Shown here one piece after another: positions 1 to 35,230 of a DNA stretch of 35,230 nucleotides. The notes under the pieces are model-generated. The model was not told the DNA's origin, ran no database searches, and worked only from the letters and a program-made list of their open reading frames with translations. The stretch's first letter is position 1; each line of letters begins with the position of its first letter. Source of the DNA: a virus (taxonomy: Duplodnaviria; Heunggongvirae; Uroviricota; Caudoviricetes); the IMG/VR virus record IMGVR_UViG_2872698443_000002, one strand, 5' to 3'. The translations under genes were made by a program, and so were the position numbers.

Positions 1-1032
1 TCAATCGCGTCTCAGCTGGGGTAAGCGAGACATCTTGGCGGGTTGATAAGCTATAGTGATCAAGAACTGAGAATACTTGAACCAATTCTCTAGAATCCCT
101 TCACCATATATCAAAATTTTATCTTCTATAGGGAAGTACAAGTTTACCACTTCATTTCTGCAAGTATCCAAGAAGGCGTAGGTTATCTCTTCTAAGGATT
201 GCAGTGATTCGTACAGAGTGCCAAAATCATAAAATGGTGAATAAACTTGGTATTTATTATAACTATCATTTATTACAAATGACTTTTTATAATGAAATCC
301 ACCTAAACACAACAGTTTACAAGTTTTTTCATAAATAATCATAACTCCTACAAATATTCTCATCTTTGTTGTGCAAAGTTCCTCTGTAGGATGTATTTGA
401 TTTTCACTCTCGGATAATTGCTTGAGTCTTGCGTTGATTTCTACCCAACATTTGTGTAAATCAATAACAAATTGCTCATTAATATCTAATTGTTGAGAAT
501 CATCAGGCGTAGATTGTGGGTATGCTTTTCTATATAATTCTTGTGGATGTTTTATAAAATGTTGGTAGATTGCTTCAGCTTGAGCTTCCTGAACCGGGTA
601 GTAGCTGCCTATTCTTTTTCCTTCGATTTTTTTATATAAATCAAGATGAAATTTCATGTGGTTGTAATATAAATCTACCCTGTTTTTCCTTTCTGCCTCT
701 GAGATCTGTTTTTCTGTTTGTTTGGTTCTGTGTAGGTTGTTTACTATTGAAACTAAAGGTACTGCAGATGCAAGGATGAGTAATGGTAATTTCGAGATAT
801 CTAAAAATCTCTCATAACCGTGACTTGTAAGACTAAAAGAGTGTATTTTATCTATCCAGACAAAAGAACCAAAGTAAAGGCTGGTGAATAAAGGTAGGCC
901 TATTGCAGCCCAGAACAAGGGTTGTTGGAACAAGCTTCTATGATCGAGAACATAAAGTCGATATTTTATAAATAAGAATATACAACCTAATAAAACGGAT
1001 AGGTACATAAATGTGCTAATGCTTTTTTCCAT
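1..1032 (-). CDS. hypothetical membrane protein; AT-rich cargo gene immediately downstream of int
   Basis: 343-aa ORF. The first ~100 aa carry three hydrophobic helix-like stretches, followed by a ~240-aa soluble region with no motif I recognise. Its ATG starts 2 nt after the int stop (tgaTAATGg). Visibly more AT-rich than the phage backbone. Confidence 0.6.
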   Translation of the reverse strand: MEKSISTFMYLSVLLGCIFLFIKYRLYVLDHRSLFQQPLFWAAIGLPLFTSLYFGSFVWIDKIHSFSLTSHGYERFLDISKLPLLILASAVPLVSIVNNLHRTKQTEKQISEAERKNRVDLYYNHMKFHLDLYKKIEGKRIGSYYPVQEAQAEAIYQHFIKHPQELYRKAYPQSTPDDSQQLDINEQFVIDLHKCWVEINARLKQLSESENQIHPTEELCTTKMRIFVGVMIIYEKTCKLLCLGGFHYKKSFVINDSYNKYQVYSPFYDFGTLYESLQSLEEITYAFLDTCRNEVVNLYFPIEDKILIYGEGILENWFKYSQFLITIAYQPAKMSRLPQLRRD

Positions 1033-1034
1033 TA

Positions 1035-2054
1035 TCAGTATCCCAACATAGCCAGTGGATTTTTTGTTACAGCATCTTCTAAATGATCTGGCGAAAAATG
1101 AGCATAAACCATCGTCATTTTTATATCAGAGTGACCAAGAATATCGCGTAGTACCAATATGTTTCCGCCATTCATCATGAAGTGACTGGCGAATGTATGG
1201 CGCAACACGTGTGTGCACTGGCCTTCAGGCAGGTCTATACCGGCTCGTTTTACTGCGCGCTCAAAAGCTTTTCTGCAGGGCGTGAATAGTTTCCCTCTGT
1301 TTTTGGGGAGTTCTTCATATAGCTCCTGAGATATCGGTACGGTTCGGTTTTTCTTGCCTTTAGTTTTGGTGTAGGTGATCCGGTATTTTGATAATTGATG
1401 GCCCTGCAGGTTTTCGGCTTCACTCCATCTCGCGCCGGTGGCCAGACATATTTTTGCAACCGTCAGCAGACTAGAGCTTTGAGAATCGGCGCAGGCATCC
1501 AGCAGACGTTTAATTTCTTCCGGGGTCAGGAACGCCAATTCACTCTCAGCAATTTTAAACGTTGGCAGCCCAGCAAGCGGGTTGGGGGCTGACCAGTGGC
1601 CCAGCTTTTTCAGTGTACCAAAAACAGATGATAGATTGCGCTGTTCAAGGTTTACCGTGCGGGGCTTAACGGGCGACATAAACGTGCCATCTTCATTTCG
1701 TACTTCACCTTTTAACCGTGCTTCGCGGTATTTCGTAAAGTCACCGGCTGTCAGTTCTGAAGCGATGGGATCGCCTAGACCATTACAGATAATACTAAGT
1801 TTCGCCATGAGGCGCTTGGGGTCTGTGAGTGTTTGACCATACAGGGAATACCACAGCTCAATTAATTCTGATAGATGTCGCCGATCTTCCTTTTCCCCCA
1901 GCCATGGTTTTTTGTTCACTTCTTCCATTGTGAAGCTTTCAAATGCAATAGCTTCGCCTTTGGTAGCAAATTGCTTACGCACGCGCTTACCATTGCGTCC
2001 ATTGGGATAGCACTCACACAACCATTTTCCGTTCGGCTGTTTTCTGATGGTCAT
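1035..2054 (-). CDS. int: phage integrase, tyrosine recombinase (P2/186 family)
   Basis: 339 aa. C-terminal catalytic region (...HVLRHTFASHFMMNGGNILVLRDILGHSDIKMTMVYAHF...) has the R..H-x-x-R...Y pattern of tyrosine recombinases. Sits directly downstream of cI on the same strand, as in 186. Confidence 0.9.
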   Translation of the reverse strand: MTIRKQPNGKWLCECYPNGRNGKRVRKQFATKGEAIAFESFTMEEVNKKPWLGEKEDRRHLSELIELWYSLYGQTLTDPKRLMAKLSIICNGLGDPIASELTAGDFTKYREARLKGEVRNEDGTFMSPVKPRTVNLEQRNLSSVFGTLKKLGHWSAPNPLAGLPTFKIAESELAFLTPEEIKRLLDACADSQSSSLLTVAKICLATGARWSEAENLQGHQLSKYRITYTKTKGKKNRTVPISQELYEELPKNRGKLFTPCRKAFERAVKRAGIDLPEGQCTHVLRHTFASHFMMNGGNILVLRDILGHSDIKMTMVYAHFSPDHLEDAVTKNPLAMLGY

Positions 2055-2057
2055 AAG

Positions 2058-2708
2058 TTAGAGGTTCTTGATTACTTTGACTGCACGTCCTACGACTTCC
2101 ACATCATCTACAGAACATTCAAATGAAGTGTCATCTTGGTTAACTACTATTTTGTTTCCGGGTATGCGCGCAATTTTGACGATGTTTTTCATACCGTCGA
2201 TGTCTATGAGCCAAATTCCGTTACTAAGCTGTTTTGCTGATGTATCAACAATGTAATTGCCGTCGTTAGCTTTGACGTACAAACAATATTCGGCTTTTCC
2301 GGGTATCAAAGTCTGATCAAGGAAAACATCCCCCATCTCTTCGAGCGTTCCGTTCTCAATGGTTGCCTGCCTTACTGATGGGATAACTATCTTTGAAAGG
2401 GGGCGAACTGTAGGTGAACTCTCGTTTTTGAACTTATTTTTTTCTTCTGTTTGAGGATACATTTCCCCTTGGCCCGTTGTCAGCCAAAGAAGAGAAATAC
2501 CTGTTTCAAGGGCACATTGAATAACCCAGTCAGCAGGGAAGCTATCACGTAACATCCTGTTTGCCATGGTGCTTTTTGATGCTTCGAGGTGTTCAACCAA
2601 CGCAATCTGAGTGTTGAAACCATAGGCAGTCATCAGCCTTTTGATGGTCTCTCTTCCTCCCGTATTTGCACCTGTATTAATCTTCAAGATGAACTCTCCA
2701 TTTGACAA
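2058..2708 (-). CDS. cI: CI-type immunity repressor (186 CI-like)
   Basis: 216-aa ORF from a TTG; N-terminal HTH-like segment (AYGFNTQIALVEHLEASKSTMANRM) and a C-terminal domain ending ...FECSVDDVEVVGRAVKVIKNL. Its stop is 4 nt from the int start (cI-int operon). The start codon is uncertain: TTG at 2708 or ATG at 2633. Confidence 0.7.
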   Translation of the reverse strand: MSNGEFILKINTGANTGGRETIKRLMTAYGFNTQIALVEHLEASKSTMANRMLRDSFPADWVIQCALETGISLLWLTTGQGEMYPQTEEKNKFKNESSPTVRPLSKIVIPSVRQATIENGTLEEMGDVFLDQTLIPGKAEYCLYVKANDGNYIVDTSAKQLSNGIWLIDIDGMKNIVKIARIPGNKIVVNQDDTSFECSVDDVEVVGRAVKVIKNL

Positions 2709-4409: not shown

Positions 4410-4636
4410 TGGCTGATGCAATGGATCTCGTACAGCAGCGAGTTGAAGAAGAACGCCAACGTCATATCCGTGCTGCCCGTGCCAAAACGCCGGGCGTGTC
4501 CCGCGTGCTTTGCGTTGAGTGTGAAGCGCCAATTCTGCCAGCACGCCGTCGTGCCATTCCGGGTGTGCAGCTTTGCATTACCTGTCAGGAAATCGCAGAG
4601 CTGAAAGGCAAACATTACAACGGAGGTGCTGTATGA
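4409..4636 (+). CDS. TraR/DksA-family C4 zinc-finger protein
   Basis: 75 aa with C-x2-C-x17-C-x2-C (CVECEAPILPARRRAIPGVQLCITCQ). Small phage proteins of this family are common in P2-like early operons. Confidence 0.8.
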   Translation: MADAMDLVQQRVEEERQRHIRAARAKTPGVSRVLCVECEAPILPARRRAIPGVQLCITCQEIAELKGKHYNGGAV

Positions 4637-5257
4637 GCACCATCCTGAAATGGGCGGGAAATAAAACCGCCATAATGTCCGAACTGAAAAAGCATCTTCC
4701 TGCTGGCCCGCGACTGGTTGAACCTTTCGCGGGATCCTGTGCAGTGATGATGGAGACGGATTACCCCAGCTATCTTGTTGCGGATATTAATCCTGATTTA
4801 ATCAACCTCTATAAAAAGGTTGCTGCTGATTGTGAGGCGTTTATATCTCGTGCCAGAGCTTTATTTGAGGAAGCAAACAGGGAGGTGGCTTATTACAACA
4901 TAAGGCAGGAGTTTAATTACTCCACTGAAATTACTGATTTCATGAAAGCGGTATATTTTCTGTATCTCAATCGTCATGGTTATCGTGGGTTATGTCGCTA
5001 TAACAAGAGCGGGTATTTCAACATTCCCTACGGTAATTATAAAAATCCGTATTTCCCTGAAAAAGAAATTCGCGCATTTGCAGAGAAAGCCCAGCGGGCA
5101 ACGTTTATCTGCGCCAGCTTTGATGAAACGCTGGCGATGTTGAAGGCGGGGGATGTGGTGTATTGCGATCCGCCTTATGACGGTACGTTTTCCGGCTATC
5201 ACACTGATGGCTTCACTGAAGATGACCAGTATCACCTGGCATCCGTTCTTGAACATC

Positions 5258-5262
5258 GATCA
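5258..5262. repeat. IS2 target-site duplication, left copy (GATCA)
   Basis: The 5-bp GATCA immediately left of the IS2 end is repeated at 6594..6598. Confidence 0.8.
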
Positions 5263-5353
5263 TAGACTGGCCCCCTGAATCTCCAGACAACCAATATCAC
5301 TTAAATAAGTGATAGTCTTAATACTAGTTTTTAGACTAGTCATTGGAGAGCAG

Positions 5354-5719
5354 ATGATTGATGTCTTAGGACCGGAGAAACGCAGACGGCGTACTACACA
5401 GGAAAAGATCGCTATTGTTCAGCAGAGTTTTGAACCGGGAATGACGGTCTCCCTTGTTGCCCGGCAACACGGTGTGGCAGCCAGCCAGTTATTTCTCTGG
5501 CGCAAGCAATACCAGGAGGGAAGTCTTACTGCTGTGGCCGCAGGAGAGCAGGTCGTTCCTGCCTCTGAACTTGCTGCTGCCATGAAGCAGATTAAAGAAC
5601 TCCAGCGCCTGCTCGGCAAAAAAACGATGGAAAATGAACTCCTTAAAGAAGCCGTTGAATACGGGCGTGCAAAAAAGTGGATAGCGCACGCGCCCTTATT
5701 GCCCGGGGATGGGGAGTAA
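5354..5719 (+). CDS. insC: IS2 transposase OrfA (InsC)
   Basis: 121 aa, [41 protein letters not shown]..., HTH-type OrfA of IS2. Confidence 0.9.
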
Positions 5720-6582
5720 GCTTAGTCAGCCGTTGTCTCCGGGTGTCGCGTGCGCAGTTGCACGTAATTCTCAGACGAACCGATGACTGGAAAGATGGTC
5801 GCCGCAGCCGTCACTCAGATGATACGGATGTGCTTCTCCGTATACACCATGTTATCGGAGAGCTGCCCACGTATGGTTATCGTCGGGTATGGGCGCTGCT
5901 TCGCAGACAGGCCGAACTTGATGGTATGCCTGCGATCAATGCCAAACGTGTTTACCGGATCATGCGCCAGAATGCGCTGTTGCTTGAGCGAAAAACCGCT
6001 GTACCGCCATCGAAACGGGCACATACTGGCAAAGTGGCCGTGAAAGAAAGCAATCAACGATGGTGCTCTGACGGGTTCGAGTTCCGCTGTGATAACGGAG
6101 AAAAACTGCGAGTCACGTTCGCGCTGGACTGCTGTGACCGTGAGGCACTGCACTGGGCAGTCACTACGGGCGGCTTCGACAGTGAAACAGTACAGGACGT
6201 AATGCTGGGAGCGGTGGAACGCCGCTTCGGCAACGAGCTTCCGGCGTCTCCAGTAGAGTGGCTGACGGATAATGGTTCATGCTACCGGGCTAATGAAACA
6301 CGGCAGTTTGCCCGGATATTGGGGCTTGAACCGAAGAACACGGCGGTGCGGAGTCCGGAGAGTAACGGCATAGCAGAGAGCTTCGTGAAAACGATAAAGC
6401 GTGACTACATCAGTATCATGCCTAAACCAGACGGGTTAACGGCAGCAAAGAACCTTGCAGAGGCGTTCGAGCATTATAACGAATGGCATCCGCATAGTGC
6501 ACTGGGTTATCGCTCGCCACGGGAATATCTGCGGCAGCAGGCCAGTAATGGGTTAAGTGATAACAGGTGTCTGGAAATATAG
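5677..6582 (+). CDS. insD: IS2 transposase OrfB (InsD), DDE catalytic domain
   Basis: 301 aa from GTG 5677, overlapping orfA in the -1 frame; an A-AAA-AAG frameshift motif lies just upstream of the orfA stop. Confidence 0.9.
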
Positions 6583-6822: not shown

Positions 6823-9237
6823 ATGAGCCATGATGATATGAACAACTGCAGCGGCTTTAACGAGGCCGCCGCAGCATTCTCATGGAACAGCCCGAAAAAG
6901 GCCATTAACCCTTATCTGGACCCGGCGGAAGTTGCGCCGGTTTCTGCGCTTTCAAACCTGATCACTCTGTACGCTGCCGATAACGAGCAGGAACAACTGC
7001 GCCGCGAGGCACTGAGTGATCAGGTCTGGGAGCGTTATTTCTTTAATGAATCCCGTGATCCTGTCCAACGCGAAATGGAGCAGGATAAGCTCATTAGCCG
7101 GGCAAAGCTGGCGCATGAGCAGCAGCGTTTTAATCCAGATATGGTCATTCTGGCGGACGTCAATGCCCAGCCTTCCCATATCAGCAAGCCGCTGATGCAA
7201 CGTATTGAATACTTCAGCAGCCTGGGCAGGCCAAAGGCTTATTCCCGCTATTTGCGTGAGACGATTAAGCCATGTCTGGAACGACTGGAGCATGTACGCG
7301 ACAGTCAGCTATCCACTTCTTTTCGCTTTATGGCAAGCCATGAAGGGCTGGACGGCCTGCTGATCCTGCCTGAAATGAGTCAGGAGCAGGTGAAACGCTT
7401 GTCTACCCTTGTCGCTGCGCATATGAGCATGTGTCTTGATGCAGCTTGTGGCGATTTGTATGTCACCGATGACGTTAAGCCAGAAGAAATCCGCAAGACA
7501 TGGGAAAAGGTGGCAGCGGAAACCCTGCGTCTGGATGTCATCCCGCCTGCGTTTGATCAACTCCGCCGGAAAAGAAACCGCCGTAAACCCGTGCCCTATG
7601 AACTCATTCCGGGTTCGCTGGCGCGTATGTTGTGCGCCGACTGGTGGTACCGGAAATTATGGAAGATGCGTTGCGAATGGCGGGAAGAGCAGTTGCGTGC
7701 TGTCTGCCTGGTCAGCAAAAAAGCATCTCCCTATGTCAGCTATGAAGCCGTGATGCATAAACGTGAGCAGCGCCGTAAGTCGCTGGAGTTTTTTCGTTCT
7801 CATGAACTGGTGAACGAAGACGGCGACACGCTGGACATGGAGGATGTGGTAAACGCCAGCAGCAGCAACCCTGCGCATCGCCGCAATGAGATGATGGCCT
7901 GTGTTAAAGGTCTGGAGCTTATCGCGGAAATGCGCGGTGACTGCGCCGTTTTCTACACCATCACCTGTCCGTCACGTTTCCATTCCACGCTAAATAACGG
8001 CAGGCCAAACCCGACCTGGACCAACGCGACAGTAAGACAAAGCAGTGATTATCTGGTCGGCATGTTTGCTGCATTTCGTAAGGCTATGCACAAAGCCGGG
8101 TTGCGCTGGTATGGCGTGCGGGTGGCTGAGCCGCATCATGACGGCACAGTTCACTGGCACCTGTTGTGTTTCATGCGCAAAAAAGACCGCCGCGCCATTA
8201 CTGCATTGTTGCGTAAGTTTGCCATCCGTGAAGACCGCGAGGAGCTGGGCAATAACACGGGACCACGCTTTAAGTCTGAGCTGATAAACCCGCGCAAAGG
8301 AACGCCGACAAGCTACATTGCGAAATATATCAGTAAGAATATTGACGGGCGTGGTCTGGCTGGCGAGATCAGTAAGGAAACGGGGAAATCCCTGCGTGAT
8401 AACGCTGAATACGTTAATGCCTGGGCGTCTCTGCATCGTGTTCAGCAATTCCGCTTCTTTGGCATTCCGGGGCGTCAGGCTTACCGTGAACTGCGATTGC
8501 TGGCTGGTCAGGCGGCAAGGCAACAGGGTGACAAAAAAGCAGGTGCGCCGGTACTGGATAACCCGCGCCTTGATGCCATTCTGGCTGCTGCTGATGCTGG
8601 TTGTTTTGCCACCTACATCATGAAGCAGGGCGGCGTACTGGTTCCCCGCAAATATCACCTCATCAGAACCGCTTATGAAATCAACGAAGAGCCAACCGCC
8701 TATGGCGATCACGGTATTCGTATTTATGGCATCTGGTCACCCATTGCAGAGGGCAAGATCTGCACTCATGCAGTGAAGTGGAAAATGGTTCGTAAGGCCG
8801 TTGACGTTCAGGAGGCGGCAGCCGACCAGGGCGCTTGCGCCCCTTGGACTCGTGGCAATAACTGTCCCCTTGCTGAAAATTTGTACCAACAAGGGAAAGA
8901 CAAATCAGCTGATGGAGATACCAGAACGGATATCACCCGCATGGATGACAAGGAGTTGCACGATTACCTGCACAGTATGAGCAAAAAAGAGCGCCGGGAA
9001 CTGGCAGCAAGGTTACGCCTGGTGAAACCGAAACGGCGTAAAGACTACAAACAGCGAATTACAGACCATCAGCGACTGCAGCTCGTGTATGAACTGAAGT
9101 CCAGGGGATTTGATGGCAGCGAGAAAGAGGTCGATTTACTCCTTCGCGGCGGCAGTATTCCGTCAGGAGCAGGCCTGCGTATCTTCTATCGGAACCAGCG
9201 TTTGCAGGAAGATGATAAGTGGCGAAACCTGTATTAA
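6823..9237 (+). CDS. A: replication initiation endonuclease gpA (rolling-circle, HUH class)
   Basis: 804 aa. Contains an HUH-like motif (VHWHLLCF) and a downstream tyrosine motif ([14 protein letters not shown]). Position after the early operon matches P2/186 gene A. Confidence 0.9.
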
Positions 9238-9306
9238 TTACGCGGGTTAACAATTCGTGCTCTTAATAATACCAGGCATATCAGGCTGATGAGCGTAAAA
9301 AAACGT

Positions 9307-9349
9307 TTTACATCAGTAAGATTATTATATACTGTAAATATAAACAGTG
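9307..9349 (+). promoter_or_regulatory. SOS-regulated promoter: -35 TTTACA, -10 TATACT, overlapping LexA box TACTGTAAATATAAACAGTG
   Basis: CTGT-N8-ACAG at 9332..9347 matches the LexA box consensus and overlaps the -10 (9328..9333). It sits about 45 bp upstream of the tum-like ORF. Confidence 0.7.
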
Positions 9350-9389
9350 GTTATGTATACAGTATTGCTTTGGTGTCATAGGAGGAAAG

Positions 9390-9578
9390 ATGCAGGACTA
9401 TTTTTTGGAGTCTTTGAAGCTCCAGCGCATTGATTTTTTTCTTAAGCTTGTAGCGGCTAGTGAGTGTAGTGATGAAGAGAAGGGGCTGGCTCTGCAGTGG
9501 GTTTCTGAACTGACAGATGAACTCATGGCAAAAATCAGAACCCACGAATACAACCGCTCAATGGATGTCATCAGCTGA
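9390..9578 (+). CDS. tum-like SOS antirepressor, N-terminal portion (possibly one half of a split tum)
   Basis: 62-aa ORF directly downstream of the LexA box. Size and position fit the N-terminal half of a 186 Tum-like protein. Confidence 0.45.
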   Translation: MQDYFLESLKLQRIDFFLKLVAASECSDEEKGLALQWVSELTDELMAKIRTHEYNRSMDVIS

Positions 9579-9588
9579 GGTGACTTTT

Positions 9589-9822
9589 ATGCGCATTGAA
9601 ATAATGATCGATAAAGAGCAGAAGATTAGCCAGTCTACACTGGACGCCCTTGAATCCGAGCTTTACCGCAATCTGCGCCCCCTGTATCCCAAAACGGTAA
9701 TTCGTATCCGCAAAGGTAGCTCTAACGGTGTGGAACTTACCGGATTGCAACTGGACGAAGAAAGAAAACAAGTGATGAAAATTATGCAGAAGGTGTGGGA
9801 AGACGACAGCTGGCTGCATTAA
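9589..9822 (+). CDS. DinI-like protein
   Basis: 77 aa, MRIEIMIDKEQKISQSTLDALESELYRNLRPLYP...VMKIMQKVWEDDSWLH, resembling E. coli DinI (MRIEVTIAK...ETWESADDWF). RBS GAGG at 9576..9579. Its frame stays open upstream to 9517, overlapping the previous ORF. Confidence 0.8.
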   Translation: MRIEIMIDKEQKISQSTLDALESELYRNLRPLYPKTVIRIRKGSSNGVELTGLQLDEERKQVMKIMQKVWEDDSWLH

Positions 9823-10033
9823 GAAACGTTGCTGGCGTCTGAACCTGCTTCTGGCGTCAGCAAGGTTGAACCGCGAGCCTTGAGAGGCGTTAACCATAAG
9901 TAAAAAGACAGTAATCACTTGATTATCTATCAGGGCGAGACCTATGCTGCACTTTTAGTTATAACTCATAATGTATTGAAATTATTAGAATATATGTCAT
10001 TCTTAAAATGTGTATGCTTATCAAGGAGCAAGA

Positions 10034-10906
10034 ATGAAACGTGGCATTGTAGCTAATCCTAATGAAATGAGTTTTCATAGAAATAATAGTACGGTCTATC
10101 TTGGGGCAGGTTTAACTGAGCAGGATATTAATTATTTCTGCTTTTACTGGGATGATGTGGTTATTCTAGATAGTGAAAATATTCACTCGATTGTGCCTAA
10201 AGAAAAAGAATTATTAGATAATGGGGTATTACGTAGACCTATTATGAAACATGATGGTATGCTGAATATCCAAGACTTTCCATTTTTATATACGGAATTT
10301 CAGTTGCAGACATTGGATGAATTCAGGAAGAACGAGCCTGCTACTTATTGGCACTTTCATCAAACAGGGGAAAATTTAATATATGATAAAGAACAGAAAA
10401 CGGCCCTTCAGTTGAGATTGGAGTTGTTTAATGTTCTGAGAATTCCTGATAAAGATGCTCATATAGAAGATATATTACGTTTTAAAGATGATTGTCAGGA
10501 TGATCTTAATGCGTTACATGAGTACTTAGAAAAACTGTATACTGAAGTCCTTTATTCTAGAGACCCTAATCTAACGAGGGCTAAAAATTTTTCTTTATTA
10601 CAAGAGGCTGTAGTTAATCTTGATAAAGCTATCGAAGGGAAATGGAGAAATCCTATCAGAATGGGAGTCAAAGCCAATCCAGAAGTAGATGGTGGGCAGG
10701 TTATGGAATTTTTAAAACCGTTGTACCATGCTGCTATTGCTGGTTATTCAGGCGGTATTATTCCCGGTATGGTTACAGCCTTGGCAACCGCAATTCCAAG
10801 TTTTATAAAAATCCAACCAGAATGGGTGGGCTTTAGAGATAAGGGGCCTAAAGAATTAGCTTATCTTACCAAAGCAACGCATAAGGGGTTGATTAAGAGA
10901 GCTTAA
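10034..10906 (+). CDS. hypothetical protein; AT-rich cargo ORF in the A-to-cos variable region
   Basis: 290 aa from ATG 10034 (RBS AAGGAG 6 nt upstream; an upstream GTG at 10010 is also possible). Visibly AT-rich. C-terminal glycine-rich hydrophobic segment AAIAGYSGGIIPGMVTALATAIPSF. No catalytic motif recognised. Confidence 0.6.
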   Translation: MKRGIVANPNEMSFHRNNSTVYLGAGLTEQDINYFCFYWDDVVILDSENIHSIVPKEKELLDNGVLRRPIMKHDGMLNIQDFPFLYTEFQLQTLDEFRKNEPATYWHFHQTGENLIYDKEQKTALQLRLELFNVLRIPDKDAHIEDILRFKDDCQDDLNALHEYLEKLYTEVLYSRDPNLTRAKNFSLLQEAVVNLDKAIEGKWRNPIRMGVKANPEVDGGQVMEFLKPLYHAAIAGYSGGIIPGMVTALATAIPSFIKIQPEWVGFRDKGPKELAYLTKATHKGLIKRA

Positions 10907-11078
10907 GGCATTTTAATCGATTTTCGCAACTATATTCCTTCGTAACCACACAAGTGCATGACTATGCCGCATGAATCCGCATGATCGTTTGAGGATCGTT
11001 TTAGCTGAGGCCCGCTAGGAATGGCGGGCCTTTGCTTATGTCATGCAGGCGCATGAAAACCACTACATAAAGCGGGCA

Positions 11079-11097
11079 GGCGTGGCGGGGATACGAG
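11079..11097. other. candidate cos cohesive-end site (GGCGTGGCGGGGATACGAG)
   Basis: Lies in the intergenic region just downstream of portal gene Q, where P2/186 cos is located. The first 13 nt resemble my recollection of the 186/P2 cohesive end (GGCG(T/A)GGCGGGGA...). Confidence 0.4.
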
Positions 11098-11258
11098 CGC
11101 GCGCAACGGGGTAAAATGGCCAAAATCCGGCACAGCCTCTGGCCCGCTGGCGGCCTCATTTAGTGGAGGGGGGGGAGATGTCAGGGCAAAAAGAAACGCC
11201 CCGCAGAATGCTGCTGAGGCGTTGTGAGAGTTGGTCGGTTATTGATGTTATGAGTATG

Positions 11259-12302
11259 TCAGCTTCGTTTGCCCTTAAGTCCTAAGTCATAGGCTTCAAA
11301 ACGGATAACCTCTTCATCCAGCCAGTCATTCAGCTCCTGCAGTCGCTTTTGCAGGGGCATCAGTTCATTGCGGACGAAGACACGGCTCGCTTTTTCCACA
11401 TCCCCAAAGCCGCCAGTGTTGTTGGGAATGATGCCCATCATTTGCGGCGGTACGCGGTGAGCCGCCATCATGTCATCGCGGCTGACGTTCTTGATGTTCA
11501 GAAATTCATCCTTCGCCGCGACTTCCGACAACGGGATAATCTGAATGCCATCTTTTTTGCCGTTAGGCGAGTACATAAACAGGTTGCGGAAGTTGCCCGG
11601 TCCTTTAGCGCTTTTCATTGCCTTGCGGATGTTGTTCACATCCTCCTGGTTCTGTGCGGCGTCGGTCATGTACATGATGAAGCCTGCGTGGCTGCCGTTA
11701 ATGTAATACTTGCGGCGGAACAGCGTGGCGGATTCGTTGAGCAGAGCTGACGGAATGGCAGAAAGGTAACCCGGCAGACCATAAATCTCCTGGTTGATAT
11801 CCGGCTCCATCAGGTGGAAGACGTTACCTTTTGTGAACTGATACGGCTGTGTCGTCAGGCTGTATTGCACAAACCAGTATGTTTCAAGGTCAAGCCCGCG
11901 TCGGGTGTATTTTGCCAGTGCAGGCTCCAGCGAAATAACTTCACCAAAGCGGTTCGTGCGTTTCTCCAGGTAGGCGTTACCAAAAACCAGATAGTCCTGC
12001 ACAAAACGGGTAAATGCCTGCTGGCTGAGAAGGCGATGTGGAATATAGGTACTGCTGATAATGTCACGCTTAACACTGATCGGGGAGCTGTGGTGCACGG
12101 CGGCGCGGAAGGTGCGCGCCAGTCCGTCAAAGCTGATGGGCGGCTCATACCAGCGATCCATCTGTACGCATTCCACATAGTCCAGCAGTTCGCGGCGGTC
12201 CAGTACAGGAATGGGATCACCAAAGCTGAAAGCCTCCGCAACGGGTTTTTTAGTTTCTTCTGCAGTTACGGTTTCGCCTGGCGCGATATGTTCTTTCATC
12301 AA
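11259..12302 (-). CDS. Q: portal protein gpQ
   Basis: 347 aa; size, position next to cos and upstream of the terminase ATPase, and P2 gene order. Confidence 0.85.
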   Translation of the reverse strand: MMKEHIAPGETVTAEETKKPVAEAFSFGDPIPVLDRRELLDYVECVQMDRWYEPPISFDGLARTFRAAVHHSSPISVKRDIISSTYIPHRLLSQQAFTRFVQDYLVFGNAYLEKRTNRFGEVISLEPALAKYTRRGLDLETYWFVQYSLTTQPYQFTKGNVFHLMEPDINQEIYGLPGYLSAIPSALLNESATLFRRKYYINGSHAGFIMYMTDAAQNQEDVNNIRKAMKSAKGPGNFRNLFMYSPNGKKDGIQIIPLSEVAAKDEFLNIKNVSRDDMMAAHRVPPQMMGIIPNNTGGFGDVEKASRVFVRNELMPLQKRLQELNDWLDEEVIRFEAYDLGLKGKRS

Positions 12303-24031: not shown

Positions 24032-24624
24032 TGAAACCTGTTTTTGATAAAAATGGGCTGGCTACAGTGCCGGGTGATATGCGTTGTTTTTATTATGATG
24101 CAGTAACGTCTGAATATACTGGCTGGTCTGATGAATATATTAATACTGGTGTAAGTATGCCCGCCTGTTCCACTGGTATTGACCCGGGCGAATACATTCC
24201 GGGGAAAGTGGCAGTATTTACGGGTAAGGGATGGAGCCATGAAGAAGACCACCGCAATGAGACTGCTTACTCAATCGAAAATGGCGCAGCTGTTACAGTG
24301 GATTATATCGGTGCCATCAAAGACGCTTATGTCACGCTTTCACCGTTAACGCCATACGATAAATGGGATGGTGAGAAATGGGTGACAGATACTGAGGCAC
24401 AGCATAGTGCCTCAGTAGACGCGGCAGAAGCACAGCGCCAGTCGCTGATTGATGCTGCAATGGCTTCCATCAGTCTGATTCAACTGAAATTGCAGGCCGG
24501 GCGGAAGCTGACGCAGGCAGAAACAACCCGACTTAACGCCGTGCTGGATTACATTGACGCGGTGACGGCAACAGATACCAGCACCGCGCCGGATATCATC
24601 TGGCCTGAACAGCCGGAGGCGTAG
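24031..24624 (+). CDS. G: tail fibre assembly chaperone gpG (Tfa), expressed orientation
   Basis: 197 aa directly after H. Its C-terminus (...DYIDAVTATDTSTAPDIIWPEQPEA) resembles that of the convergent tfa copy. Confidence 0.8.
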   Translation: MKPVFDKNGLATVPGDMRCFYYDAVTSEYTGWSDEYINTGVSMPACSTGIDPGEYIPGKVAVFTGKGWSHEEDHRNETAYSIENGAAVTVDYIGAIKDAYVTLSPLTPYDKWDGEKWVTDTEAQHSASVDAAEAQRQSLIDAAMASISLIQLKLQAGRKLTQAETTRLNAVLDYIDAVTATDTSTAPDIIWPEQPEA

Positions 24625-25030
24625 GCCATTCAATATCTGGAGCACTGGAAATATCAACCATTTCCAGTGCGTCCAGATAATCAAACCAGGCGTTCAAAAG
24701 TGCTTCTTCATCTGGCTTGATGCGTTTGAGCGCCAGTCTTGTCCGTAGCATCTCTGTTTCCGATTTCACTTCTGATATCAGAAATACTTTTTTGACTTCC
24801 GCCTGATGCACCAATTCCTCATGGGTAGGCAGAGTGACATTCACCCAGGCAGGTCGACCTTTGACACTACCGAGTTCTTTTCCTTCCGGAGCCGGTTTCA
24901 TCCAGTATTTATCACGCTCTGAATCCGTCAGTTTAACGATATCGTCCGGCCATGTTCCGGCGGCGATATAGCCGTCTTTCATATCCAGAGGATAAAACGC
25001 CAACGTTGTGGCTGAGAAGCACATATCCAT
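24596..25030 (-). CDS. alternative tail fibre assembly chaperone (tfa'), silent orientation
   Basis: 144 aa, convergent with G with 3' ends overlapping; C-terminus (...DYLDALEMVDISSAPDIEWPTPP) is related to G. Confidence 0.7.
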   Translation of the reverse strand: MDMCFSATTLAFYPLDMKDGYIAAGTWPDDIVKLTDSERDKYWMKPAPEGKELGSVKGRPAWVNVTLPTHEELVHQAEVKKVFLISEVKSETEMLRTRLALKRIKPDEEALLNAWFDYLDALEMVDISSAPDIEWPTPPAVQAR

Positions 25031-25032
25031 AA

Positions 25033-25677
25033 TTAAAATCCTATCGCTAGCCAGGTGGTGGCGTTATTATCGGGAAGGAGCACTCTGTCTGATGTGTTGC
25101 TTAACACGCAAATCTGTGTGGCATTAAATCCGACATTCGTTATAGCATTAGCTGTCCACACTGATGTCGTTTGTCCGCCGCCCGGCGAAGACTCGCCGAC
25201 AAACAGTGGTGGTCTTGTGAAAGCCACCGGGAATTTTACGTAGACATCTGTTGGTGTAATCTCTGATAGCCCCCACTGTATAATCATGCCGGACGGTAAC
25301 TTCTGATATCCATTAGTTGACGGTGAACTACCAAAATCAGCAGGTAGCCCGCGCACCAAATCGGCATCAAGCCCTGACCCGGAACCATCAACCTGAAGCA
25401 GTTTTGTCAGTATTGCCTGCGCCGTTACCTGTTCTTCAAGAGCAAGACTTCCTCCTTTGTTTTGCAGATATACGTATTTTGCGGCACCGTCGACTTTAAA
25501 AGCGATAGCAAATTGTTTCTTCTGTTCATCATATGCCAGCCAAAGACTATCCTCTGGCCTGCCAGACTCAAACACGAAAGTCGAGAATCTGTTATCTGTC
25601 TTATCTCTCTTCAGGTTCAGTAATTCCGGTAAACCAACGTTTATGAAAATGCAGAGATAACGGCTAACTGGCATCAT
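25033..25677 (-). CDS. alternative tail-fibre variable C-terminal cassette (promoterless, silent orientation)
   Basis: Reading frame open through the crossover site. Sequence after the site (...IFINVGLPELLNLKRDK...) parallels H at its crossover (...LLAYLGLGEGAP...). The functional part is about 25033..25636; residues upstream of the site are read-through only. Confidence 0.65.
   Translation of the reverse strand: MMPVSRYLCIFINVGLPELLNLKRDKTDNRFSTFVFESGRPEDSLWLAYDEQKKQFAIAFKVDGAAKYVYLQNKGGSLALEEQVTAQAILTKLLQVDGSGSGLDADLVRGLPADFGSSPSTNGYQKLPSGMIIQWGLSEITPTDVYVKFPVAFTRPPLFVGESSPGGGQTTSVWTANAITNVGFNATQICVLSNTSDRVLLPDNNATTWLAIGF
25624..25649. repeat. invertase crossover site, right (TTCCGGTAAACCAACGTTTATGAAAA), gix/hix-like
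   Basis: Closely resembles Gin/Hin-family recombination sites (compare gix TTCCTGTAAACCGAGGTTTTGGATAA); inverted relative to the site in H; about 55 bp upstream of the invertase gene. Confidence 0.65.
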
Positions 25678-34170: not shown

Positions 34171-34533
34171 TGGTGGAGCTGGCGGGAGTTGAACCCGCGT
34201 CCGAAATTCCTACATCCTCGGTACTACATGCTTAGTCAGTCTTTACATTCGCTTGCCAGCTGCGGACGGACACGCCACTAACAAACTAGCCTGATTAAGT
34301 TTTAACGCTTCAACCCCAGGCAGGGCTTCCACGCGATCTCTTTTGGGTTTGACCTCTCTTGATCCCCGTCCTAAGAGCGGAGGCTAGGGAGAGAGGGCTC
34401 TAAGCAGGTTATTAAGCTGCTAAAGCGTAGTTTTCGTCGTTTGCGACTATTTTTTGCGGCTTTTTACGAGGCCAACCGCCCCTCGGCATGCACCTTGGGT
34501 TTCGCAAATCCCGTCGAATCCAGAATCAGCCCC
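34171..34533 (-). ncRNA. ssrA: tmRNA (SsrA)
   Basis: The reverse complement begins GGGGCTGATTCTGGATTCGACGGGATTTGCGAAACCC and ends ...GGTTCAACTCCCGCCAGCTCCACCA. It contains the ANDENYALAA tag-coding region (...GCAAACGACGAAAACTACGCTTTAGCAGCTTAA) and the tRNA-like 3' end. Length is 363 nt. Confidence 0.95.
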
Positions 34534-34747: not shown

Positions 34748-35230
34748 TTAACGGTGGGCGTTTTTCATGATACGCGCTTTATCCACCTGCCATTCGCGCT
34801 CTTTGATATCTGAACGTTTATCGTGCTGTTTCTTACCTTTGGCGACGCCGATTTTCACTTTGCACCAGGCATTTTTCCAGTACAGGGAGAGCGCCACTAC
34901 GGTATAGCCTTCTCGATTGACGCGACCGTACAATGAGTCCAGTTCGCGCTGGTTGAGAAGTAACTTGCGGGTACGGGTAGGATCGCACACCACATGCGTG
35001 GAGGCCACTGCCATTGGCGTGATGTTTGCGCCAAACAGGAACGCTTCTCCGTCACGCAGAAGGACATAGCTGTCGCTGATATTGGCTTTTCCTGCGCGCA
35101 GGGATTTAACTTCCCAGCCTTGCAGGGCAAGTCCCGCTTCGAACTCTTCTTCGATAAAGTATTCGTGACGGGCGCGCTTGTTAAGCGCGATGGTCGCTGA
35201 ACCAGGTTTATGTGCTTTTTTCTTCGTCAT
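34748..35230 (-). CDS. smpB: SsrA-binding protein SmpB
   Basis: 160 aa, [56 protein letters not shown]..., immediately upstream of ssrA in the same orientation. Start codon is at the window edge. Confidence 0.95.

Follow-up and report, generated by a model that had tools for sequence, protein, structure and literature searches.

A DUF6236 gene as horizontally acquired single-gene cargo of the cos-proximal hotspot in a 186-like prophage, and a candidate for phage exclusion

What does a single AT-rich gene contribute to a P2-family prophage when it lies between the replication gene A and the cohesive-end site cos, an interval that in P2 contains orf91, tin, and old? The question arises from the viral DNA of IMG/VR record IMGVR_UViG_2872698443_000002 (35,230 nucleotides, analysed at its full length and referred to below as the window), which is a P2-family, 186-like prophage. 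An earlier reading of this stretch, made from its letters alone and called here the sequence-only reading, had placed at 9823–10906 an orphan gene in a P2 defence hotspot and had suggested for it the role of an anti-phage effector ending in a glycine-zipper membrane helix. The gene is shown here to be a horizontally acquired single-gene cassette of the DUF6236 family, situated in the cos-proximal hotspot between gpA and gpQ and having no fixed partner. We tentatively favour its reading as stand-alone phage-exclusion or anti-phage cargo that benefits the lysogen, at somewhat less than an even chance. The gene is a known and catalogued anti-phage candidate, for which we infer a mechanism below.

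The coding sequence (10034..10906, plus strand) begins with ATG, specifies 290 residues and a stop codon, and is preceded by AAGGAG at 10023–10028; the frame can be extended upstream to a GTG at 10010. Its GC content of 0.362 and third-position GC (GC3) of 0.292 compare with 0.52–0.57 and 0.58–0.70 in the gpA, portal, and terminase genes, which bears out the earlier description of an AT-rich gene between gene A (6823..9237) and cos (11079–11097). Comparison with homologues 60–72% identical to it gave proportions of nonsynonymous and synonymous differences (pN/pS) of 0.16/0.79, 0.19/0.78, and 0.25/0.84. Since synonymous sites are saturated (pS 0.78–0.84) while pN stays at 0.16–0.25, the frame is a genuine gene that evolves under purifying selection.

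Nor is the gene the orphan that had been supposed. The Pfam model DUF6236 (PF19749) is matched with 75.8 bits (gathering cut-off 26.2, E 4.4e-21), residues 35–281 aligning with positions 75–319 of the 324 in the profile, and phrog_23128 is matched end to end (E 6.5e-32, residues 1–284 on positions 1–286 of 288); all 80 aligned relatives also match Pfam DUF6236. The gene bears the RefSeq label 'DUF6236 family protein' in 23 of 5,426 complete Escherichia coli genomes, at a nucleotide identity of at least 99%. A word-indexed search returned homologues 33–87% identical in Cronobacter, Hafnia, Klebsiella, and Enterobacter, and an exhaustive profile search, counted at the level of 50%-identity clusters, gave ~1,000 clusters of relatives (1,006 representative clusters at E ≤ 1e-3, 448 at ≤ 1e-10). 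The relatives from the profile search are nearly all single-domain proteins of 280–300 residues, spread over Proteobacteria, Bacteroidota, Campylobacterota, and Acidobacteriota.

The hotspot is bounded on the left by gpA, which matches PF05840, and on the right by the portal gene gpQ (11259..12302, minus strand), annotated as a phage portal protein in sister prophages. The cohesive-end 19-mer of cos, GGCGTGGCGGGGATACGAG (11079..11097, plus strand), has a single match in the window, with 0 expected by chance, and is identical to P2 cosR GGCGAGGCGGGGAAAGCAC in 14 of 19 bases; to the right of it portal Q and terminase P lie on the minus strand, followed by the late genes. The DUF6236 gene thus sits between A and Q, beside cos, where content varies among similar prophages, as is characteristic of cargo of this hotspot: the flanking DinI module is common to 1,125 E. 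coli genomes, whereas the DUF6236 gene is present in only 23. In comparisons with prophages carrying other cargo, the left homology breakpoints fall at 9820–9939, mostly at ~9832 and ~9892, and the right one at ~10953. Because homology ends at ~9832/9892 and resumes at ~10953, the mobile unit measures ~1.06 kb; the swapped single-gene cassette (9893..10952, plus strand) comprises a 141-bp leader, the coding sequence, and a 46-bp tail, and the span proposed earlier was a fair approximation of it. With a GC content of 0.355 against 0.51–0.55 in the backbone, and GC3 of 0.29 against 0.58–0.70, the cassette has the composition of a moron, the leader being particularly AT-rich (GC 0.305). Only weak sigma-70-like matches (TTGATT-18-TATGCT and TTATTA-16-TAAAAT) are found in this leader, and an alignment of the leaders upstream of seven homologues revealed no conserved promoter. 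Rfam models gave no match at E ≤ 1, and so no ncRNA, over 9200–11300, and small ORFs on both strands inside the region were without support.

The surroundings of the cassette resemble an SOS operon. A LexA-box consensus CTGTAAATATAAACAG (9332..9347, plus strand), the sole CTGT-N8-ACAG match in the window, stands upstream of an operon formed by a 62-residue backbone ORF (9390..9578, plus strand; phrog_698, E 3.6e-38; hypothetical protein WP_001154434 in sister prophages) and a DinI-like, Tum-type gene (9589..9822, plus strand; PF06183 DinI, E 1.3e-22). The latter encodes 77 residues in the RefSeq sister prophages (234-bp coding sequence), an alternative longer reading of 101 residues starting at 9517. 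After it comes a stem-loop without a U-run (9825..9867, plus strand; ΔG −23.5 kcal/mol, z −2.2), which is backbone in many prophages, homology with other-cargo prophages often reaching ~9892. Beyond the cassette, to the right of the 10953 breakpoint, a strong GC-rich stem-loop followed by UUUGCUU (11003..11036, plus strand; ΔG −25.6 kcal/mol, z −3.4, a stability reached by 0 of 200 shuffles) belongs to the conserved backbone and is the probable operon terminator, analogous to t95b of phage 186.

The record of 186 gives the order p95 with its LexA site upstream of tum, then t95a, orf97, and t95b, and the order in the window is alike. By analogy, the LexA box would correspond in position to the SOS-dependent promoter p95; the DinI-like gene occupies the identical position to tum, and the first stem-loop is the positional analogue of the partial terminator t95a. 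Since the layout mirrors the SOS operon of 186, the DUF6236 frame replaces orf97 in an SOS-readable slot, which in 186 is read from p95 through t95a and whose product is annotated with the words 'expression from plasmid blocks 186 infection'. The two genes agree in slot, orientation, and regulatory layout, although the likeness is positional only, the window protein showing no similarity to Orf97 (BLASTP E 0.22). The same operon could instead harbour a gene that serves the phage itself, that is, an accessory or anti-defence gene expressed on induction together with the SOS/early or the late operon, which might counter host immunity (for example, through a Rossmann/CARF-like domain binding a signalling nucleotide) or aid lytic development. 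We consider a phage-serving role rather unlikely.

To return to cargo that benefits the lysogen, the same slot holds homologues in other P2-like prophages. In those of Cronobacter (72% identity) and of the Klebsiella type (60% identity) the gene has no companion ahead of cos and the portal gene, and in Hafnia a 69%-identical copy is found in a decayed P2 remnant, beside a 561-residue protein matching PADLOC Old. Four E. coli genomes have the solo arrangement of the window, and ~18 of 22 copies diverge from it just right of cos, the point of divergence corresponding to ~11104–11115. In the two diverging sister prophages that were examined, extra cargo lies between cos and Q: an AIPR/AbiU gene in S163-2 and a PIN gene in the remnant of strain E2 (L001 13456–15222, AIPR/AbiU-like, PADLOC E 5e-24, and L015 5402–6463, PIN_12, respectively). 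This right-hand slot is empty in the window. The hotspot thus comprises two sub-slots that swap independently, one to either side of cos. Almost all structural genes are gone from these decayed prophages. Of the phage, the Hafnia remnants (L003 and L004) have only a portal fragment and ogr left, yet both DUF6236 and the Old-like gene are kept; in the E2 remnant (L015), where DUF6236 and PIN are kept, gene D and ogr directly adjoin a truncated terminase. Such retention is consistent with domestication of hotspot cargo.

In other backbones, homologues 31–58% identical occupy the cos-proximal interval between the lysis cassette and the terminase, both in HK97-like prophages (L010, L013, L014, L022, L025–L029, and L033–L035) and in lambda-like prophages with a Nu1/gpA-type terminase (L023, L024, L030, and L031); in L021 the homologue is located after the tail-tip genes. 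Several HK97-like loci (L022, L025, L027–L029, L033–L035, and L010) also have, on the stretch from the cargo slot to the small terminase, conserved genes for 485 and 196 residues, the former with a weak Glycos_transf_2 match (E 1e-4). These were considered as partners and rejected, being phage backbone genes and not cargo. An IS3-family element is inserted beside the DUF6236 gene in L022. Chromosomal copies have unrelated neighbours, including thioredoxin-like, NnrS, and aconitase genes, and one adjoins a PDC-S26/PD-(D/E)XK candidate defence gene. A genome scan for family loci returned 10 loci. A conserved partner gene was likewise rejected, the neighbours differing in every lineage (none, AbiU/AIPR, PIN, or Old), which argues that the DUF6236 protein acts alone, in line with the earlier proposal of stand-alone cargo of foreign composition. 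In three phage backbones, the gene turns up as mobile cargo in accessory slots close to cos.

The published record of the family is confined to supplements. In a literature search no main text mentioned DUF6236, and two supplements list it; it is absent from those of Vassallo 2022, of a 2025 metagenomic-selection preprint, and of a 2026 P2/P4 preprint. Rousset et al. (2022) described the gpA–cos–gpQ hotspot as a defence reservoir with 1,650 arrangements in 18,150 loci (PMC9122126), which supports the sequence-only reading on the nature of the region, as the P2 record does on the presence of tin and old. In their Table S5B, DUF6236 is single-gene System #125, with 23 P2-hotspot occurrences and no transmembrane entry, and is not among the systems cloned (PMC9122126); the sequence given there is identical to the window ORF in 289 of 290 positions. 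Exactly three DUF6236 arrangements appear in Table S5A (solo, with AIPR/AbiU, and with PIN), and five of the eight newly cloned P2-hotspot candidates of that study were inactive (PMC9122126). DefensePredictor (DeWeirdt et al.) gives the allele WP_053901735.1 a mean log-odds of 8.32 and the label 'putative novel defense gene', other DUF6236 alleles scoring 8.6–11.0, and 42 of its 94 tested candidates (45%) were validated (PMC13092281). WP_053901735.1 is the E. coli allele at the locus matching the window gene.

These validation rates (five of eight inactive, 45% validated), a family with no known function, and the heterogeneous chromosomal neighbours would also suit a non-immune lysogenic-conversion or fitness gene, for example, one for a peripheral-membrane or stress-related protein. 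Set against this are the recurrence in cos-proximal slots of three backbones, the defence genes among the neighbours, and the high DefensePredictor score, so that such a gene appears doubtful here.

Modelling of the protein with AlphaFold2 and an alignment of 80 sequences gave a mean predicted local confidence (pLDDT) of 83 and a predicted template-modelling score (pTM) of 0.74; a model made with 13 sequences was unusable (pLDDT 42). Residues 1–135 (10034..10438, plus strand) form an N-terminal α/β, Rossmann-like domain (pLDDT >90) with near-invariant R3, G4, Y38, W39, D40, and W106. Residues 136–204 (10439..10645, plus strand) comprise the 'LPVP' loop, here RIPD, and a three-helix region (helices 144–153, 155–173, and 178–203, pLDDT >90) with conserved F150, K151, Y169, and D177; this is the most conserved segment, with the lowest mean column entropy (2.15). 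A low-confidence excursion follows (residues 205–270, pLDDT 53–68, two short helices), which includes a moderately hydrophobic helical hairpin of small residues carrying a glycine zipper (residues 220–260; 10691..10813, plus strand; entropy 2.98). The conserved C-terminal helix (residues 271–290; 10844..10903, plus strand; pLDDT 87–89), with L275, Y277, T279, K280, and A281, probably packs back on the body of the protein, as judged from the model. Near-invariant across the family are R3, G4, Y38, W39, D40, W106, L131, L135, P136, P138, F150, K151, Y169, D177, and Y277; they are mostly structural, the only polar ones being R3, D40, K151, and D177, and no catalytic set is evident. In some members (P0157 and P0051) a SEC-C zinc-binding motif is present at the N terminus (E 8e-11 and 3e-7), and a few relatives match 2TM-effector, SLATT, or DUF1269 models weakly.

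The hairpin contains the peptide AAIAGYSGGIIPGMVTALATAIPSF at residues 233–257. A glycine zipper, in the form reportedly defined by Kim et al. in 2005, reads (G/A/S)xxxGxxxG or GxxxGxxx(G/A/S/T) in a hydrophobic stretch, and the window protein presents it as G237-G241-G245-A249-A253, with i+4 steps throughout. Of 139 homologues, 75 carry the motif, where composition-preserving shuffles yield 27.7 ± 3.6; this enrichment indicates that the periodicity is real. Family-wide, the hairpin region contains 37% G/A/S/T (21% elsewhere) and 14% charged residues (26% elsewhere), its position and composition being conserved and its sequence hypervariable. The best Kyte–Doolittle 19-mer of the window protein scores 1.63 (family median 1.49, with only 25% reaching 1.6), and a rough Hessa-type ΔG is +5.0 kcal/mol, with a family minimum of +0.48 and values ≤0 in 0 of 139. 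Thus, of the glycine-zipper membrane helix proposed earlier, the zipper stands and is enriched across the family, whereas insertion is made marginal by the hydrophobicity, the insertion energy, and the low pLDDT, and the hairpin does not resemble a classical α-helical membrane segment. Action at a membrane by an oligomerising hairpin is possible.

The same features can be read as those of an effector or sensor of the cytosol. Its active part would be the Rossmann-like domain, through nucleotide binding or turnover, and the zipper hairpin would serve only for soluble oligomerisation. The conservation of the N-terminal and helical domains next to a hypervariable hairpin, the polarity of the hairpin, and the lack of a transmembrane entry in the table of Rousset et al. 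all fit this arrangement; yet four conserved polar residues make no catalytic constellation, and no enzyme fold is matched significantly, which leaves it improbable.

A still weaker case can be made for one half of a two-gene system whose other half lies across cos (AIPR/AbiU, PIN, or Old-like). The divergence of ~18 of 22 E. coli copies right of cos, the AIPR/AbiU or PIN genes in the two examined, and the Old-like neighbour in Hafnia agree with it, but the partner varies and is missing from the window, from four E. coli genomes, from the Cronobacter and Klebsiella-type prophages, and from all lambdoid contexts; AbiU and Old are known to work without DUF6236, and the terminator and cos separate the two genes. 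It is accordingly very unlikely. An RNase of the HEPN type acting through R136-x6-H143 is hardly credible: the motif RIPDKDAH is present (residues 136–143) and was rightly distrusted by the sequence-only reading, since most family members have Pro at position 136 (LPVP), H143 is variable, the motif lies in a loop of the AlphaFold2 model and not between HEPN helices, and the Pfam and PADLOC HEPN models gave no match.

Stand-alone phage-exclusion cargo is the reading to be weighed. Counted in its favour are the hotspot location, the sharp breakpoints, the low GC content, the recurrence in three backbones, and the retention in remnants, as well as the often defensive neighbouring cargo (AbiU/AIPR, Old, and PDC-S26), the entry as System #125, the DefensePredictor scores, the slot of 186 orf97, the zipper enrichment, and the few members with a SEC-C motif or weak matches to 2TM-effector, SLATT, or DUF1269 models. 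The following observations speak against it. A 289-residue E. coli DUF6236 protein (WP_097421955.1, id '6236', log-odds 8.56) was cloned with its native promoter region (MG1655 pCV1-6236) and challenged with 24 phages, and Table S6 gives it as defensive = FALSE (PMC13092281); its HHblits log-odds in DefensePredictor was −3.08 (PMC13092281). Among the 5,027 defence HMMs of PADLOC-DB v2.0.0 the window protein had no match at E ≤ 1. A strict sigma-70 scan found no promoter in the leader. The few conserved polar residues do not allow a catalytic or ligand-binding site to be named; the check by remote homology led to a known family, and the structural comparison gave only generic fold matches, with no enzyme fold significant. 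No segment reaches classical transmembrane hydrophobicity, and the hairpin is modelled at low confidence.

The tested '6236' probably belongs, as its 289-residue E. coli member, to a cluster that shares 36.8% identity with the window protein. Of that cluster one locus was examined, the lambdoid L010 of Enterobacter, and blastn with the Enterobacter homologue found nothing among the complete E. coli genomes. The authors of DefensePredictor note that negatives may require other phages, hosts, or gene boundaries (PMC13092281). PADLOC searches with the 80 relatives gave scattered single-member matches only, for example, E2/E1-E2 and PDC-S12, both of which probably come from one member with the SEC-C motif. 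For the anti-phage effector proposed earlier, a defence function is thus only predicted (log-odds 8.3), and the one tested homologue (24 phages) speaks against it.

For the preferred reading the following course of events can be proposed. Basal expression would be low, from a weak promoter in the AT-rich leader, and would be raised by SOS read-through from the upstream LexA-controlled DinI/Tum operon. The N-terminal Rossmann-like and helical domains (residues 1–204) would hold the zipper hairpin (residues 220–260) and perhaps sense a phage cue; once triggered, the hairpin would self-associate at the inner membrane and then either leak ions (abortive infection) or block genome entry (superinfection exclusion). 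That the N-terminal body controls a hairpin acting at the inner membrane is speculative and rather unlikely. The range of defence is possibly narrow and aimed at temperate competitors. We can speculate further that a stand-alone CARF-like Rossmann sensor gates a membrane lesion made by the zipper, timed by SOS and directed mainly against temperate phages at induction; this is a long shot, but it would explain why a screen of a homologue against lytic phages was null.

The remaining features of the prophage are as follows. The integrase gene (1035..2054, minus strand) is followed by that of CI (2058..2708, minus strand), and a CII-type ORF comes next. At the left edge, a 343-residue ORF (1–1032, minus strand; GC ~0.33–0.35; no match in Pfam) adjoins the integrase; it could represent another low-GC accessory gene at the int end, or else belong to an adjacent island. 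In the early region (4573–6582) the Dam (D12) methylase is shortened to 230 residues, the sister prophages L001 and L016 having an 858-bp gene (~285 residues), and an IS3-family transposase gene (5677..6582; rve, rve_3, HTH_21) lies directly after Dam and upstream of gpA. The arrangement has the appearance of an IS inserted into the early operon, an event that could alter gene A expression and inducibility. The site corresponding to the second P2 hotspot (Z/fun, the interval between tail-fibre assembly and sheath genes; 24596–25677, minus strand) contains oppositely oriented genes, a tail-fibre-like one (25033..25677, Gp53-like_C) preceded by another (24596..25030); their appearance is that of a tail-fibre cassette, alternative or invertible, and not of defence cargo. 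The right edge holds the tmRNA gene ssrA (34171–34533, minus strand; 296 bits) and smpB (34748..35230, minus strand), which locates the prophage at the ssrA locus. The E. coli prophages L001 and L016, with the identical cassette, sit beside rcdA/ybjJ and not at ssrA, and identical cargo is therefore found in prophages with differing integration modules.

PF19749, phrog_23128, System #125 of Rousset et al., and '6236' of DefensePredictor are the same entity as the family of the window gene. Because it already stands in two published supplementary tables, the present case is an instance with a new context and not a new discovery. New here are the slot in a 186-type SOS operon, the distribution over three backbones, the family-wide enrichment of the zipper, and the arguments by which HEPN and a classical transmembrane helix are rejected. 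The DUF6236 family is large and recurs in cos-proximal slots of three unrelated temperate backbones, yet neither a function nor a structural relative is known for it, and the single experimental result on the family is negative. If it is a true defence or exclusion protein, its single-protein mechanism would be new, and K-12 screens that use lytic phages would be shown to overlook prophage cargo that targets temperate competitors or needs SOS for its expression; should it prove not to be defensive, it would be a useful documented false positive for predictions from hotspots and from machine learning.

Among known systems, tin and old of P2 occupy the same gpA–cos interval of a P2-family phage and are non-essential exclusion genes of lysogenic conversion. 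Unlike the window gene, they lie on the opposite strand and have their own promoter; the window protein has no similarity to P2 Tin (E 3.8), and P2 Old is an ATPase-TOPRIM nuclease, unrelated to the DUF6236 protein. Rst_DUF4238 is likewise a single protein of ~290 residues and of a DUF family from the P2 hotspot, with its mechanism unknown. It belongs to a separate family and, in contrast to DUF6236, has been validated (against T7); the 80 DUF6236 members had no DUF4238 match at E ≤ 1 among the families listed. In turn, Cam1 (CARF-TM), the 2TM effectors of CBASS, and RexB are proteins with genuinely hydrophobic transmembrane helices that rely on a signal-making partner. The DUF6236 protein differs from them in its more polar hairpin, the absence of a partner, and a generic fold; it may work like these effectors, which is a likeness in action and not a membership.

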